Shown: positions 4,516-51,096 of the stretch, in pieces
Layout: the number at the start of each line of letters is the position of its first letter
Numbering within the stretch: position 1 is the stretch's first letter
From: a virus
DNA length: 64,000 bases
IMG/VR virus record: IMGVR_UViG_3300050190_000082
Span: 89,760-153,759 of that record
Reading direction: 5' to 3' (one strand)
Notes under the pieces: model-generated
What the model was told of the DNA's origin: nothing
Seen by the model: the letters and a program-made list of their open reading frames with translations, nothing else
Database searches by the model: none
Position numbers and translations under genes: made by a program

Positions 4516-5445
4516 TTATACGTCTCCTACTTCATTCCAAGGTATTGTTACATCTACAAGAGATTGTGCATTATCGCCTACCGCAATTACATCATTTAAT
4601 TTATAATCAAATGTATTTGCAGTAGATTCAGTAATCACCTTAATCAATTGCCCTGTTTTGCTCTTTAGGTACTTATATTTTTTATCATGCAAAAATGTAC
4701 CTAAACTTTCTAAGTAATCGCTCCACCGAATTTTTGCATCAAAATCCAACAAACCATTAGAATCGAAGGGAATTAACTTTGAAGTTATCGCACCAGACCT
4801 AAAATTTCTATTACTTACAACGAATGTATCAAATTTTGTATAATTCTGAAGCATTGTAGTATTTGAGTTAATCGTTACTTTATCGCTCGTTGTATCAATA
4901 TCAAATTTATACACCTCAACATTAGAATTAATATCAACATCCATACTATCTGCGTCCTGAGAAATTATAAAATATCCATAGAATGATGTCTTCTGAATGT
5001 CCGTAATTATGGGTTCACTTATCTGAGTAGCAGAATTAGCAAATAATAAATATTCATAGGATTGATTCCCTTCACATTTATAATCAATCCAACTCGTTAT
5101 ATCAGGATTTACTGTCGTAACTAAAGTTAATATATCACCCTCATATATTCTTCTATATAGTGACCAACTTACAGGGCTATCTACCAGTCCGAATATATTA
5201 CTTCCATCTAAAGTATTATTAAAACTTGCTAGAAATTTTACATCAGGAGTCCATGATGGTAATGTACTTATGCTTGTAGTTAAAACTTGTGAATCTGTTT
5301 TTACATAGTTTTGTATTGCTATTGAATCTAATGTACAGTTACCATTAAAGGTAAAACCAGTATGTACTTCATTATGCAAAGACACATCAGTTATAATTGT
5401 CTGGATTCCCGAAGAATCCATTAAAAATCCATTATTAGTTGACAT
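4516..5445 (-). CDS. Putative distal tail/baseplate protein, C-terminal piece
   Basis: 309 aa; FN3-like segment (WSLYRR..WIDY..YEYLLF) and Dit-like C-terminus ending WNEVG. Confidence 0.6.
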   Translation of the reverse strand: MSTNNGFLMDSSGIQTIITDVSLHNEVHTGFTFNGNCTLDSIAIQNYVKTDSQVLTTSISTLPSWTPDVKFLASFNNTLDGSNIFGLVDSPVSWSLYRRIYEGDILTLVTTVNPDITSWIDYKCEGNQSYEYLLFANSATQISEPIITDIQKTSFYGYFIISQDADSMDVDINSNVEVYKFDIDTTSDKVTINSNTTMLQNYTKFDTFVVSNRNFRSGAITSKLIPFDSNGLLDFDAKIRWSDYLESLGTFLHDKKYKYLKSKTGQLIKVITESTANTFDYKLNDVIAVGDNAQSLVDVTIPWNEVGDV

Positions 5446-11800: not shown

Positions 11801-14800
11801 TCTGTTTTAGAATTCAAATTAAATTGTTCCATAGGTAGAAGTGACCTTTTAGCGGAAGTATCTTGTATACTTTTAATGTCTGTTTCTAGTTGTTTGATTT
11901 GCTTTTGGGCTTCAGTATAATTAACAGCATCTTTCATTTTTTGTAATGCTGTAGTCACATCATCTATTTTTTTAGGATCTAATGTATCTTCAAAAGTTTT
12001 AACAGCAGTAGTAAAGTCTACTTGAGATTTCTTTGTGGCATCTAATTGTTCTTGAACCTTTGCTTGCTGATTAGCATAACCAACAAGTCCTGCGGTTATT
12101 GCTACAACTGCTGAAAGGGCTAAAATAATTGGGTTAGCCATTAAAAAATCTAATGCTACAGAAAGTGCTTCTGTAGCAGTTGCCGCAATTCCTTCCGCTA
12201 GGATAAATTCACCTAAAGACGTAATAGCTCCTGCAATCGCTTGCCCTTTAAATATTGTTAATGCAGCAACTACTAAATATATTGCAGTACCCATTCCCCC
12301 AAAAGTTGAGGTTACATGTCCGATTGTGCTTACTAAATTGGTAAGTTGGGTTACAGCCCCATTGACAGTATCAGAGGATATAAGAGACAACCAAAGCTGT
12401 TGCATTGTATTGGTTAAATCTGCCAATTTTGCTTGGGTCGATTTACCATACTCACCAAAACGTGCCATTGCATTACCCGCACTGGATGCCTCGGTTGTTT
12501 GTTGTTGTAAAGCCATATCCATATTTTGCATGAGAGCGAGGAATTGGTCATGCTGACGGGTCATTCTGTTACTTTCACCTAAAAAGGCTACTGACTATTC
12601 AATTAAGAATAGCGGAAATGGTTCTTCTTAATTAAAATAAAATTTATTTTAATAGAGTGTCTTTACACTCGACCATTTCTCTCTATAATTTCTATAGATG
12701 TTCAGACTATATCTTATGGATTATTTGTTAAGTTAAACAAATAATATCCATCTCTCCACTTAGTCGTTGAACCTTCAACTTATTTCTAAGTTGCTTGGAT
12801 GCTGATTTCCCAATCTAGTTAATTTTCAAACATTCACGCTTGTTGTCACCAACTACGTTGTAGTTTAACTAGCTCTAAGGGATTCCCAGCAATTCGAAGA
12901 GTTCTATATATGTATTACTACATACTCAGGCACACATTTTACCTGCTACCGCCGTTGCAATTCCTGCTTGCTGAACTTGATTATAATCATTCCAATGTGA
13001 ACTTATTGTCTTCAAAACATCATCAAAGCTTTTAAATTCACCACTTGAACTGCGGATTGTTACACCCACTGAATTTAATACTTTTTCAACATTATTTAAT
13101 GGTTCCCCATTAAGATCATTCATTACTCCAGCTTTTACATTTTCGTATCGGCTAAATATGGAATTGCAAATCTGTTACTTTCGCTTATTCATAAAAATAA
13201 GTTACTGACTATTCAAATAAATGAATAGCGGAAATGGTTCTTCTTTAGGTAATTATTTCATACCGACCATTTCTCTCTCCCTTATTATGTGGAATATAGG
13301 AGACGTTCAGACTGTCGCATATGGATAAATATATTTATTTATCCATTTCTCTCGTTCAGTCGTTCACAGTGATATCAACTATTATTTAATGTAATTGATG
13401 TCTTCTGCCCTGTCACCCAACCACTGGGCTTCCAAGTCGATTAGAGAGAATTTTCTTAGCAGTTTATGTATTATGCCACTAAGCCCCCAACATTAAGGGA
13501 CGTACCAATACTATCCGCACTTTGACGAGTAGTTGATGAAATTGTACCTATATATGAAATTAATTCTGGAAGACTTACAGACGCAGCCTGTGCTGAAAAT
13601 GCTGTTTTCTGAATTGCTGCACTTAATTCCGCAGTTGATGTTGCAGATGTGTTGTCCACTGCGACCATTTTATCGACAAATCCCATCATATCGGTAGCTG
13701 ACATTTTGTAAGAGTTCATGACGCTAATTAAACTCTGTGCAGAATCTTGTTGAGATTGACCTGCAATCTTACTCATGACTGTACTACTTTTTAATAATTC
13801 AGATGTGCTACTCGCAGAATTGCCAGCTCTTAGGAATTCCTCTGATGCAGTCATTATTTCAGACGTAGTTTCATGTAATTGTCCTGCCAATGCGGAATAA
13901 TCTTGTGTCATCTGTACAATAGAATCATGAGAATTTCCTGTTATCATAGCGATATTTGTCATGTTCGCATTTATACCGTTTATAAAGGCAAATCCATCCT
14001 TAATTTGTTTAAGGGTCGAAAATAGGGCACCGCCAACGATAGACCACTGAACCATCTTAATTCCATTATTTACCAAATCTGCACCAAACCCCTGAGCAGC
14101 AACTTTAGCTTCATTTAAACCAGCTTTCATGTTGTTGGTAGCTGACGTTACTTGAGCAGATTCCGCTTTAAATGCTTCCATATCAGCAACATTAGTTAAA
14201 GAACTTGAGGATGCTGTTATTGAACTAATTTGAGACTGTACATCAGGTGTTTTGGCCAAACTTCCGAATTGACTCTGAATATTACGAAGTGCTAGTGCGT
14301 TACGCTCTTGAAAAAGTGCAATTGATCTTTGTAATTCAACATTTTCTAATCTCGTATTTTCTATTTCCTTATCCGCTACAAGTTGTATACTTGTTTCTGA
14401 TCTCATACTTGCCATTAAACTCTTGAGAGAATCTAATTGGCTAAAAGCTTCTGATCCAATAGAAATTGCACTTAATTTTTCTTGAAGTAAAACCATTTGA
14501 TCTTCAGTTAACTTAACAGAAGAAGCTCCACCTCTAATCTCTGCAAACAGCAAGTTATATTTTTCTTGTTGTGACTGAATGGCTAAAGTTTGCTTTTCTT
14601 CCAAACTTATTGTTTGGGTTATTTGATTATCCATTTCTACAAGAGCAGAGACATTATCAAGTATTTCTTGCTTTAAGGTATCAGAGAAACTTCCACTATT
14701 TAAAGCATTTATTTTCTCTTCTAATGTAGCCAACTCTACCGATAATTTTTCGACATTGGTAATATCGTCTAATTTTACTATTTGTTTCACTTGAAATAAA

Positions 14801-27800: not shown

Positions 27801-27881
27801 TCTCCTTTAATATTGTCCTTAAAAAGTAAAGCAGGAAGGCGTTAAGGAAAACGCTTTTCGTGTAGCTATTCACTATCCTGC
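27801..27881 (-). promoter_or_regulatory. Structured 5' leader, copy D
   Basis: P1 GCAGGA/UCCUGC; P2 GUG/CAC with UAGCUA loop; P3 GCGUU/AACGC with loop UUCCUU complementary to two downstream AAGGA, the second being the RBS. Confidence 0.7.
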
Positions 27882-27956
27882 AATTGTGCTAATTTATTGC
27901 ACAACAAAAAAGACACTCTAATGAATGTCTCAAGTTCTAAAATAAATTATTATTTA

Positions 27957-47872: not shown

Positions 47873-48460
47873 CTATAAAATTTTATCAACTATATTAAAT
47901 TCCTCTTTAACTGCATCAGAACCCCAAAAATACCAATCATATTTCATCTTCTTAATCTCTTCTAACCTTGCATCTGAAATATTTGTAGTATCGGTTATAA
48001 TTGACTTTAATTTATTCCATATAGTTTCAGTTTCTTCCATATCATCAATCATATCTTGATGTTTTCCAGAAGTTCCAGATATAGCACTATGAACCATAAT
48101 TCTAGAATCAGGTAAAGCTCTACGGTCACTACCACTTATCAATATCCAAAAGCCACCTGAAAATGCTATTGTATGAACAGTAGTAATTATCTTATAACCG
48201 TCATTTCTTACCATACTTCTGATTTTTGAGCATAGAGCAATTGTTGAATAAGCATCTCCACCATATGTATCCAAAACAATTTCGATAGGTTTTTTAGTTC
48301 CTGATTTTTTATCAATAGCTTGGAGTCTATCTAAATAATAAATTACCTTGAAAATCGACTCTCTATCAATTTCCTCGCAAAGAAAAATACGACGATCACG
48401 AATAGCAGAGTTAATACGCATTTCCTCGATTACTCTATCAACTGGCATCATAACTTCCAT
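47873..48460 (-). CDS. ClpP-like protease subunit
   Basis: RRIFL, TYGG, AFSGG (Ser), R.ALP.SRIMVH (His), DW. Confidence 0.88.
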   Translation of the reverse strand: MEVMMPVDRVIEEMRINSAIRDRRIFLCEEIDRESIFKVIYYLDRLQAIDKKSGTKKPIEIVLDTYGGDAYSTIALCSKIRSMVRNDGYKIITTVHTIAFSGGFWILISGSDRRALPDSRIMVHSAISGTSGKHQDMIDDMEETETIWNKLKSIITDTTNISDARLEEIKKMKYDWYFWGSDAVKEEFNIVDKIL

Positions 48461-48488: not shown

Positions 48489-49448
48489 TTATAAAACTTT
48501 TACATGATTCCAACATTTGTTTAATTTTATTCTGGATATCAAAGTTGAAGTCACTTTATATTCTTTTGCTAAAGTAATTCCCTTTTCTCCATCATTTAAT
48601 CTAGTTCTAATATTAATAACATCAGATTCAGATAAAACAGCCATGCCATTAGTAGAACCTTTTAATCCTTCTATTATAGGGAATGTTATATTTTCGGTAA
48701 GATGTTTCCAAGTTGATTTAATCCTAATATCATTAATTGATCTCCTGTTTATATTGAAATCATTAGATATTGTTTCGCAAGATTCTTTATTTAATAGTCT
48801 ATCTATAATAGTTAATGCCTGCTTTTCAGTAAGTTTAGAATTGTGCTTATTTTCCCCTCTATCTAACCTCTCCTTAAAAACAAGTCCTTTAGTAAGACTA
48901 TTCCATGATATACGGTAGTAAATATTATATATAGTTGATTTATCAACCTTTAATTTTACAGCTATCTGTGTTATTGGAACAATTGTATTTACCAAGTAAG
49001 CTATAACTTGTAAAATAGATTTTTTGCTATACTTAGATGCACCGCATTCTTCCCCTTCATATATCGGTGGTTGATTTCCTCCGTCTTGAATATTAGTTAG
49101 TCTATAATTAGGGAAATCTGCTCTGTATAAATGTATTAATTTTATCTCCATAGCAAATGCGGCTTCTTCTGATAGACAATCAAAAACTATTCTATAATTT
49201 GTGTTATGAGAATCGTACATCTTCATAAAAAATAAGTTTTCTTTTTTTAGTTGCTTTGCTCTATTTAATTTTCCTTTACCAACATAAAAAACTTCATTTG
49301 TCTCAATAATATACCATTCATAAACATAATAAATTTGTTGAGTATCTAATTCTTTTGGATTTCTTGTTTTCTTTTTCACATCCCCATCTCCTTTATTTTT
49401 GCAAACAAAAGAGATGACAGAGAAACATTCTGCCATCCAAACCTCCAC
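48489..49448 (-). CDS. GIY-YIG endonuclease with C-terminal HTH repeats
   Basis: YYVY...FYVGKG...R, E..LI, LTN...GG; three (S/A)K(L/Y)..V..I...W.H repeats. Confidence 0.8.
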   Translation of the reverse strand: MEVWMAECFSVISFVCKNKGDGDVKKKTRNPKELDTQQIYYVYEWYIIETNEVFYVGKGKLNRAKQLKKENLFFMKMYDSHNTNYRIVFDCLSEEAAFAMEIKLIHLYRADFPNYRLTNIQDGGNQPPIYEGEECGASKYSKKSILQVIAYLVNTIVPITQIAVKLKVDKSTIYNIYYRISWNSLTKGLVFKERLDRGENKHNSKLTEKQALTIIDRLLNKESCETISNDFNINRRSINDIRIKSTWKHLTENITFPIIEGLKGSTNGMAVLSESDVINIRTRLNDGEKGITLAKEYKVTSTLISRIKLNKCWNHVKVL

Positions 49449-49484: not shown

Positions 49485-50705
49485 TTACTTGAATTTACAA
49501 TCATTAATATATTTCCTACCATAGTCCTTACGAACAATAAACATAGTAGCACCTGAATTAGAACTCTTTTTGATATCTTTGGCATAATCATTCATTCCCA
49601 TAATTGATCTAACTTGAATAACTTCTTTACCTTTTGCTACTTCAAATTCATTCTTACTATGTAAATGACCACAAACAAAATAATCGACATCAATGTTATA
49701 TGTATCTTCATAATCCTTAATACTATTTCTGAGATTGTTTTCTTTATTTCCATGAGCAGTTAAGAAATTATATCCATTAATATTGAAGTAATTCAGACCA
49801 TCAAGACTATCACATATATTGATATTTGGATTATTCCTAAATGATTTTTTTAAAGTCCTAGTATAGATACGTTCTAGATTTTCATGAGGAAAATCACCTT
49901 TTTTACCTGTTAAAAGTCTTAAATCTGAGTGATTACCTTCTGATGTATAAAAATCAATACTGAAATATGTACTCAATGAGAATAATATGTCTTCGATAAA
50001 ATCAGCATAATCTAGAATGACATCAACTATATTCCCCTTCAATGATTTAAGTTGAGAAATGTGGAGTATGCCATCTATACTGTCGCCTAAGTCAGTAAGA
50101 GATAATTTCTTAACATTATGTTTACTCCCGAAATCAATCAATTCATCTCTATATTCAATCATTCTACGTTTAAAAATATCAGCATTGTATTCATTAATAA
50201 TTTCACCATTAAATCCTTTTATAGAAAATTCACAACCATAATGAGGGTCTGCAAATGCACTAAATAACTCATCTGAACCATTCTCGATTAAGATAGGAGA
50301 AGGGAGTTGTCTGCTTTTTCTTCCAATCAGTTTTAGAACTGATTCGTCTATTCTTTCATAGAACAATTCTTCCCTAGACTGTTCTTTAAGCCAAGCAAAG
50401 TATTCACTTTTCTCATCTCTAAGTTTTTGTCTTTCTTTATAAACTTCACGCTTTTGAATATCGTATTCTTTTAATATGCTATCATCTGAAATGCTATTAA
50501 CCTTAGTATCCGTTACACCTTCATTATACGCACGATACCATTTTCTGTAGCAGGACTCAGTAAAATTCTCGCCAGATTCTTTATTTACTAAGTCTGCTAT
50601 TTCTTGAGATTTTAAGTTGTATAGTTCTTTATTATCAAAGAGCCTGATTTTATAATTCTTTACACTTTCGTTGTCTAATCTTAAATATTTCATTAAGCAC
50701 TCCAA
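49485..50705 (-). CDS. Calcineurin-like metallophosphoesterase (YonJ-like)
   Basis: DPHYG, GDSIDG, GNH, HG, GHLH motifs. Confidence 0.85.
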   Translation of the reverse strand: MECLMKYLRLDNESVKNYKIRLFDNKELYNLKSQEIADLVNKESGENFTESCYRKWYRAYNEGVTDTKVNSISDDSILKEYDIQKREVYKERQKLRDEKSEYFAWLKEQSREELFYERIDESVLKLIGRKSRQLPSPILIENGSDELFSAFADPHYGCEFSIKGFNGEIINEYNADIFKRRMIEYRDELIDFGSKHNVKKLSLTDLGDSIDGILHISQLKSLKGNIVDVILDYADFIEDILFSLSTYFSIDFYTSEGNHSDLRLLTGKKGDFPHENLERIYTRTLKKSFRNNPNINICDSLDGLNYFNINGYNFLTAHGNKENNLRNSIKDYEDTYNIDVDYFVCGHLHSKNEFEVAKGKEVIQVRSIMGMNDYAKDIKKSSNSGATMFIVRKDYGRKYINDCKFK

Positions 50706-50943: not shown

Positions 50944-51017
50944 TGGAGCCGAAACACAGAATCAAACTGTGAATCTCTGATTACAAAACAGAAGTTTTAT
51001 CATTAAACTATTTCGGC
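50944..51017 (-). tRNA. tRNA-Thr(UGU), degenerate
   Basis: Acceptor GCCGAAA/TTTCGGC, anticodon TGT, encoded CCA; D-loop GA for GG and T-loop TTTGA. Confidence 0.7.
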
Positions 51018-51020
51018 ATT

Positions 51021-51096
51021 TGGCAGTCTAGGTACGGCTTGAACGTACAACCTTCTCCTTAACAGGGAGTTGCTCCACCAATTGAGCTACTAGACT
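51021..51096 (-). tRNA. tRNA-Asn(GUU)
   Basis: Acceptor AGTCTAG/CTAGACT, D arm GCTC/GAGC with GG, loop CTGTTAA, GTTCAA T loop, G-CCA. Confidence 0.88.

Follow-up and report, generated by a model that had tools for sequence, protein, structure and literature searches.

We describe here a phage tape measure gene that is broken up by a pair of group I introns. The gene lies on the minus strand of a stretch of 64,000 nucleotides (hereafter the window, whose positions are used as coordinates throughout), which corresponds to bases 89760-153759 of the 153,759-bp IMG/VR virus record IMGVR_UViG_3300050190_000082, estimated to be 92% complete. The exons and introns of the gene, in the order of transcription, are the following (ORF, open reading frame):

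15684-13496, minus strand: exon 1, 729 codons plus 2 nt, ending in phase 2 inside a Leu codon (CT/C)
13495-13167, minus strand: intron 1, a 329-nt ORF-less group I intron at 'site A' (SL/NSIFSR)
13166-12941, minus strand: exon 2, 226 nt (1 nt plus 75 codons)
12940-12562, minus strand: intron 2, a 379-nt ORF-less group I intron at 'site B' (AVAG/TRQ, phase 0)
12561-8884, minus strand: exon 3, 1225 codons plus stop, with the transmembrane/coiled part and, at the C-terminus, an SLT lytic transglycosylase domain

When the three exons are joined they form a frame of 6093 nt that encodes 2030 amino acids (aa) with no internal stops, and in which the junction peptides read GTSL/NSIFSR at site A and AVAG/TRQ at site B. 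Read-through into intron 1 meets an in-frame stop 8 codons in, and read-through into intron 2 meets one 4 codons in. Translation of the unspliced RNA gives a 737-aa product, removal of intron 1 alone gives one of 809 aa, and skipping of exon 2 (226 nt, or 1 mod 3) shifts the frame to a stop at 778 aa. The ORFs that a gene caller would see are one of 737 aa (15684-13471), followed by a gap, and one of 1226 aa (12564-8884). Neither intron 1 nor intron 2 contains a sense-strand ORF of 36 aa or more, so that both lack the homing endonuclease gene by which mobile group I introns are recognised.

On the strength of its PF10145 and SLT architecture and its tape measure homologs, we identify the gene as a phage tape measure gene. 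The domain Pfam PF10145 (phage minor tail / tape measure core) is divided between two exons in colinear order, with profile positions 4-137 at the end of exon 1 (residues 600-729) and positions 143-201 in exon 2, and Pfam PF01464 (SLT) matches residues 1031-1125 of exon 3. Among cultured phages the protein is nearest, at approximately 30% identity, to the tape measure proteins of the Bacillus phages Kirov and PBC2 and to YomI of the SPbeta group, and one neighbouring gene is nearest to that of Geobacillus virus E3 (41%), followed by SPbeta-like phages (31%). No cultured phage was matched when the region was compared by megablast, and exon 1 used as a query over viral contigs returned no relatives. 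The phage appears from these likenesses to be an uncultured, 154-kb siphovirus distantly like SPbeta and Geobacillus E3, and its host is presumably a member of the Bacillota.

The boundaries of the introns are fixed to the base by homologs that lack one or both of them. P0005, an intronless protein of 1979 aa from a 19-kb Logan contig with Yom-type tail genes, aligns gap-free over both junctions (SLKTIFSR and AVAGTRQ), and its residues 480-760, which span both sites, were matched as single unbroken pieces in the tape measure genes of cultured phages (best 60 of 165 matches). The closest relative, locus L002 with protein P0004, is 74% identical over the conserved part of exon 1 and 75% identical over exon 2 (P0004 residues 570-644). 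Here GTSLNSIFSR is contiguous and intron 1 is absent; the ORF of L002 stops 3 codons past AVAG, and the final 40 nt of its contig form a P1-P2 region like that of intron 2. An earlier note on this DNA, made from the letters and their ORFs, had read the three ORFs as exons of one tape measure gene and predicted that removal of 13495-13167 and 12940-12562 would restore both junction peptides. The colinearity of P0005 over both junctions, and of P0004 over the first, bears this out, and the note's coordinates prove exact to the base, as do its stop-free 2030-aa frame, its truncated products of 737 and 809 aa and its frameshift on skipping of exon 2.

Other tape measure genes carry introns at one or both of these sites. 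Locus L004 has an intron exactly at site A (after base 2 of the Leu codon) and none at site B, and its intron harbours within P6a an endonuclease-like ORF of approximately 336 aa, whose N-terminus appears GIY-YIG-like by eye and which gave no Pfam match at E<=0.01. L005, from a 179-kb phage, has a compact ORF-less intron of 258 nt positioned 8 nt upstream of site A. Introns are found at both sites in L020 (identical to L021, L022 and L023), whose tape measure gene is 27-32% identical to the one described here; the first contains a 341-aa endonuclease-like ORF, again with a GIY-YIG-like N-terminus by eye, and the second is ORF-less. Finally, L026 is part of pNPD1_1, a phage-like plasmid of Clostridium botulinum CDC_54064 (NZ_CP013295.1, 135228-140785), where the tape measure gene has been annotated (PGAP) as four separate coding sequences (CDSs). 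Its site B appears to hold a group I intron of 1293 nt (L026 3059-4351) that has a 320-aa ORF and whose first 19 nt are the same as the first 19 nt of intron 2. L026 also possesses an unrelated intron-like spacer of approximately 248 nt (2199-2446) at a third site, right before GAEEFLRAG. Introns are therefore present at identical codon positions in tape measure genes that are 27-33% identical (L004 and L020 for site A, L020 and pNPD1_1 for site B), and site B is occupied by homologous introns in L002, L020 and L026. Because other phages hold homologous introns at these positions, some of them with an endonuclease-like ORF, sites A and B evidently gain and lose introns.

Both introns display the architecture of a group I ribozyme. 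Intron 2 scored 69.6 bits against the Rfam group I covariance model RF00028 (gathering threshold 50 bits), with an E value of 1.4e-15 for the whole window and a match to the full model (1-253), and was the only hit of this model at E<=0.01 over the whole genome. Both introns fold far more stably than shuffled controls (z of -5.96 for intron 2 and -4.42 for intron 1). The paired elements were assigned as follows:

13483-13501, minus strand: intron 1 P1, 5' exon GUCCCU (13501-13496) paired with guide GGGGGC (13488-13483), U.G at the splice site; from the minimum free energy fold
12927-12945, minus strand: intron 2 P1, 5' exon CAGGU (12945-12941) paired with guide GCCUG (12931-12927), U.G at the splice site; from the Rfam alignment
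13310-13450, minus strand: intron 1 catalytic core, from the consensus fold of intron 1, L004 and L020 with manual P3/P7 assignment
13450-13444 with 13353-13347, minus strand: intron 1 P3 (UUCUCUC/GAGAGAA)
within 13436-13374, minus strand: intron 1 P4, P5 and P6/P6a
13361-13357 (GACUG) with 13314-13310 (CAGUC), minus strand: intron 1 P7
13346-13321, minus strand: intron 1 P8
12705-12901, minus strand: intron 2 catalytic core, from the Rfam covariance-model alignment, with P4, a long-extended P5 and P6
12901-12896 with 12757-12752, minus strand: intron 2 P3
within the intron 2 core, minus strand: intron 2 P7 (GACUA/UAGUC)
12751-12716, minus strand: intron 2 P8

The core of intron 1 is complete (P1, P2, P3, P4, P5, P6/P6a, P7, P8 and P9), the model alignment of intron 2 also gives P2 and P9, and both introns possess the P3/P7 pseudoknot core (P3-P8, P4-P6) and a terminal G, located at 13167 in intron 1 and at 12562 in intron 2. 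The pairings are further supported by covariation among relatives. Guide and exon change together in the relatives of intron 1 (exon GCAUU with guide GGUGC in L004; exon UCCCU with guide GGGGC in L020) as well as in L002, and for P1 of intron 2 L020 offers a compensatory pair (exon CGGGU, guide GCCCG). Relative to L004 and L020, intron 1 exhibits compensatory changes in P2, P5, P7 (GACUG/CAGUC to GACUU/AAGUC in L020) and P8, and such changes are likewise seen in both helices of the 3' module described below. In the scheme attributed to Michel and Westhof in 1990, subgroup IA (IA1/IA2) is reportedly marked by extra helices P7.1/P7.2 between P3' and P8. In the introns described here P8 follows directly after P3' (13347-13353 and 13321-13346 in intron 1; 12752-12757 and 12716-12751 in intron 2), and this mark is missing from both.

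The Rfam alignments end at 13184 and 12681. These positions were considered as 3' splice sites and rejected, since only 13167 and 12562 give colinearity with the homologs; the true 3' ends are thus located 17 nt (intron 1) and 119 nt (intron 2) beyond the ends of the alignments. The alignments stop early because both introns contain an extra 3' domain of approximately 110-120 nt that is not covered by the model.

Several points weigh against the view that both introns are working ribozymes. Intron 1 scored only 28.1 bits against RF00028, under the threshold of 50 (E 0.0037 for the whole window and 7.6e-5 locally), and Rfam placed one strand of its P7 wrongly in the 3' module. The model is weak on this clade, also missing L004 and L005, and the core placement of intron 1 given above rests on our own three-sequence alignment (intron 1, L004 and L020). 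P10 with the 3' exon amounts to at most about 2 bp in each intron, as judged by eye, and the phage is known solely from a metagenome contig, from which splicing is here deduced. On the low score of intron 1 it could be argued that the introns are genuine in origin and that splicing has been lost from one of them (intron 1 being the likeliest), leaving a dead gene or a contig that represents a defective phage; indeed the contig is a metagenome assembly estimated to be 92% complete and of unproven viability. We consider this very unlikely. All of the core helices of intron 1 are intact, its differences from L004 and L020 are compensatory and not disruptive, its P7 retains an AACGACU-type strand as in the Rfam-aligned P7 of intron 2, and the three exons are stop-free across 6.1 kb. 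We attribute the low score to a limit of the Rfam model's coverage, because clade members L004 and L005 are missed as well. In fact, Rfam found nothing at E<=0.01 in the relatives L002-L005, and for this reason is of no use for a census of the clade. The earlier note's assignment of both elements as ORF-less group I introns is supported here by RF00028 matches, folds, the U.G pair in P1, the P3/P7/P8 core and the terminal G, with the qualification that in the covariance-model check it had proposed intron 2 passes the threshold and intron 1 falls below it.

Gene callers give separate ORFs of 737 and 1226 aa, PGAP annotates the C. botulinum homolog as separate CDSs, and the last three bases of intron 2 are an AUG in frame with exon 3, all of which would suit a gene in pieces, with separate translation of the three ORFs and assembly of their products into a split tape measure protein in the absence of splicing. 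We regard this as even less probable than a dead intron: exon 2 lacks a 5' start codon and has as its first nucleotide the end of a Leu codon (phase 2), the spacers can be recognised as ribozymes, and the breaks interrupt PF10145, a domain that homologs have in one unbroken piece. The AUG itself (with GGUG upstream) was examined as a start codon for exon 3 and rejected, as (A)AUG is a conserved intron end, which L004 and L020 have out of frame in their site-A introns, with a stop soon after, and which owes its frame in intron 2 solely to site B being phase 0. There is a similarly slight chance that splicing is regulatory, whereby partial or slow splicing, or the use by intron 1 of the module of intron 2 (with exon 2 skipped), would deliberately yield N-terminal products of 737, 778 and 809 aa beside the full ruler. 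Although such products would be well defined, and a 3' splice-site module is common to both introns, we see no sign of functional truncations, as the read-through tails are mere P1-P2 sequence, and relatives with one intron or none (P0005, L002, L004 and L005) manage without them.

We therefore hold, with high confidence, that the locus contains one 6.1-kb tape measure gene with two independent ORF-less group I ribozymes, and that the doubly spliced mRNA alone encodes the 2030-aa ruler. We infer self-splicing along the following lines. The precursor transcript would carry both ribozymes, each folding to P1-P9 plus the shared 3' domain; each intron would bind an exogenous guanosine and cut after the last U of the exon, which is paired to G in P1, and the exons would then be ligated at the terminal G of each intron. 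Both ribozymes would have to act in order to produce the ruler with its C-terminal lytic transglycosylase, and incompletely spliced RNA would give the truncations of 737 or 809 aa by way of the in-frame stops in the introns. The introns may be viewed as selfish passengers belonging to a widespread, module-defined clade that resides mainly in the PF10145 core of tape measure genes. Since endonuclease genes are absent from both, these two copies presumably have no means of spread other than recombination or a nuclease provided in trans.

The extra 3' domain is a homologous module in the two introns:

13167-13277, minus strand: intron 1 3' module, 111 nt (E 2e-24 with an nhmmer profile of 7 introns)
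12562-12683, minus strand: intron 2 3' module, 122 nt (nhmmer E 3.5e-22)

In order, the module consists of the helices GAAAUGGUC/GAACCAUUUC and GCUAUUC/GAAUAGU (which we name P9.1 and P9.2, these being names of our own for the two conserved module helices), after which come CAGUAG, a small hairpin, GAAAGUAACAG and the terminal G. In L026 the module helices are GGAAUGGUC/GUACCAUUCC and GCCAUAGC/GUUAUGGU, with compensatory changes. The modules of introns 1 and 2 are 62% identical overall and share one identical block of 23 nt, as compared with 29% likeness for the 5' parts of the introns, and the module of intron 1 is 91% identical to that of L004. Near-identity is seen within one gene: in L020 the modules of the two introns (4593-4690 and 5123-5220) form a 98-nt direct repeat of 99% identity, 530 bp apart, whereas outside the modules the two introns differ, which suggests gene conversion between the neighbouring introns of L020. 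Searches of all 153,759 bases of the phage genome (blastn and two nhmmer profiles) revealed no copies beyond these two, the next match having an E value of 0.18. An exact 18-mer of the module matched 12 times in genome contigs, all by chance (unrelated genomes with the rest of the module absent), and L006 and L024 were likewise rejected as module carriers, being chance matches.

A free-standing GIY-YIG-like gene is located in the window at 48489-49349 (minus strand), and shares 37% identity, over 100 aa, with the N-terminus of the site-A intron ORF of L020; in Pfam it gave only a weak HTH_23 match. It is flanked by a metallophosphoesterase homolog (49485-50705) and a ClpP-like protease gene (47873-48460), the former a 406-aa neighbour that was considered as a portal protein and rejected on its homology. 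A 65-nt likeness of the L020 and L004 introns to window positions 49273-49336 was rejected as an RNA element, as it is the N-terminal coding region of this same GIY-YIG-like gene.

To follow the module further afield, we searched a degenerate module pattern in viral contigs and prokaryote genomes. It matched 74 stretches in the former and 25 in the latter (Paenibacillus, Lachnospiraceae, Clostridium, Virgibacillus and others), corresponding to 83 distinct module instances with the two introns described here included. A rough test for motifs in the downstream exon places at least 42 of the 83 at three tape-measure sites that recur, and several of the others likewise resemble tape measure sequence. 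About 40 of the 83 (loci L028-L121) have downstream exons outside the three tape-measure motifs, among them the recurrent and unrecognised MYDEETEEFIGNIEEL, AEFADSFKMVSARV, M(Y/F)M(E/D)S..(A/S)(R/N)N(V/T)G and (A/T)(M/L)KTVSSEWG. Among 50,697 records of cultured phages, a blastn-detectable module is present only in Microcystis phage MaeS (L122, MT362618.1 32762-39857), at 86.7% identity and ending right before a DNDYAISTAQLA... exon. This downstream exon is tape-measure-like (DNDYAIS...) and at a further site, with the flanking pieces annotated as separate hypothetical proteins; tblastn with the tape measure core of the window gave a marginal match only, so that the identity of the host gene rests on the motif. 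These features suggest that the tape measure gene of MaeS contains an unannotated, ORF-carrying intron. The introns of pNPD1_1 (NZ_CP013295.1) and MaeS (MT362618.1) thus share clade and 3' module with the two described here and are equally unannotated, but differ in carrying ORFs and in being represented in their records only as separate CDSs.

From comparison with these relatives, intron 2 looks to be a mosaic. Its P1-P2 region and 3' module match those of other site-B introns, yet a core different from its own is common to the introns that L002, L020 and L026 have at site B. Across its P3-P7 core (intron positions 32-183), intron 2 shows up to 80.6% DNA identity to introns in the endolysin genes of Staphylococcus phages (e.g. 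vB_SepS_BE22, OQ355701.1), and this core also resembles introns of many other phages. The likeness to the Staphylococcus introns is confined to this core: they gave no match to the P1-P2 region of intron 2 (beyond position 32) or to the 3' module, their host gene is the endolysin, and HNH endonuclease genes are annotated in the split-endolysin region. Although tentative, and in our estimation more doubtful than probable, it is conceivable that introns 1 and 2 belong to a large undescribed clade defined by a portable 3' module of approximately 100 nt, which has specialised on the PF10145 core of tape measure genes at four or more recurrent sites, and which is retargeted by swapping P1-P2 or even the whole core. 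Were this so, the near-identical modules within one gene of L020 would be a sign of gene conversion still going on within the gene, or of a module that functions as a unit, for instance as a shared cofactor site or in 3' splice-site selection.

Introns in tape measure genes, pairs of them included, are already established, and our findings leave this picture unchanged. Tourasse and Kolsto (2008; PMC2504315) reported group I introns at three tape measure sites in prophages of the Bacillus cereus group, with TMP-IVS1, IVS2, IVS3a and IVS3b occurring at most two per gene (IVS1 with IVS3a in E33L; IVS2 with IVS3a in KBAB4). The rarity that the earlier note had implied for two such introns in a virion ruler was therefore overstated. 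Most TMP-IVS introns are without a complete endonuclease gene. That paper also describes related introns at different sites with P1 adapted to each, different cores at one site with conserved peripheral domains, a patchy presence among related phages, and a further tape measure intron in Lactobacillus delbrueckii phage JCL1032 (PMC2504315). By this published description the TMP-IVS introns are like those reported here in their host gene, in numbering up to two, and in mostly lacking a complete endonuclease gene; they differ in phage lineage, being found in B. cereus-group prophages and not in an uncultured phage of 154 kb with a distant likeness to SPbeta and Geobacillus E3. Barth et al. (2023; PMC10448857) refer to the tape measure gene as 'frequently interrupted' and demonstrated, by RNA-seq and RT-PCR, splicing to the full-length frame for the tape measure intron of Vibrio phage ICP1, which infects a Gram-negative host. 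While the tape measure gene is interrupted in both cases, ICP1 has one intron containing an HNH endonuclease gene (two such genes in one isolate), as opposed to the two ORF-less introns described here, which are known from sequence alone. Spliced introns are also known in capsid and minor tail genes of cluster J mycobacteriophages (PMC3706429). What remains as most novel is the 3' module that defines the clade, along with its nearly identical copies in two introns of a single gene, as in L020, neither of which is described in the available text of PMC2504315.

Elsewhere in the window, Rfam gave a match to int-alpA RNA (RF02996), barely over the threshold, at 27816-27883 (minus strand; 37.1 bits against 35.8, E 5e-4) and identified two adjacent tRNA genes at 50947-51096 (minus strand; Rfam tRNA, 62 and 59 bits).

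The tape measure gene of this phage is a case in which gene callers split a single gene into ORFs of 737 and 1226 aa and lose an exon of 75 codons altogether, and the same error of annotation is present in the deposited records of C. botulinum pNPD1_1 and phage MaeS. Tail length is commonly predicted from the length of the tape measure protein, and given this practice, introns that go unrecognised will lead to wrong predictions of tail length. With natural intron-minus alleles at both sites, the locus also offers a clean case of an essential late structural gene that would depend on two ribozymes for its expression. Finally, it may link these ribozymes to a widespread clade of tape-measure-associated introns, one that could be used for studying how introns change their target sites and exchange modules.

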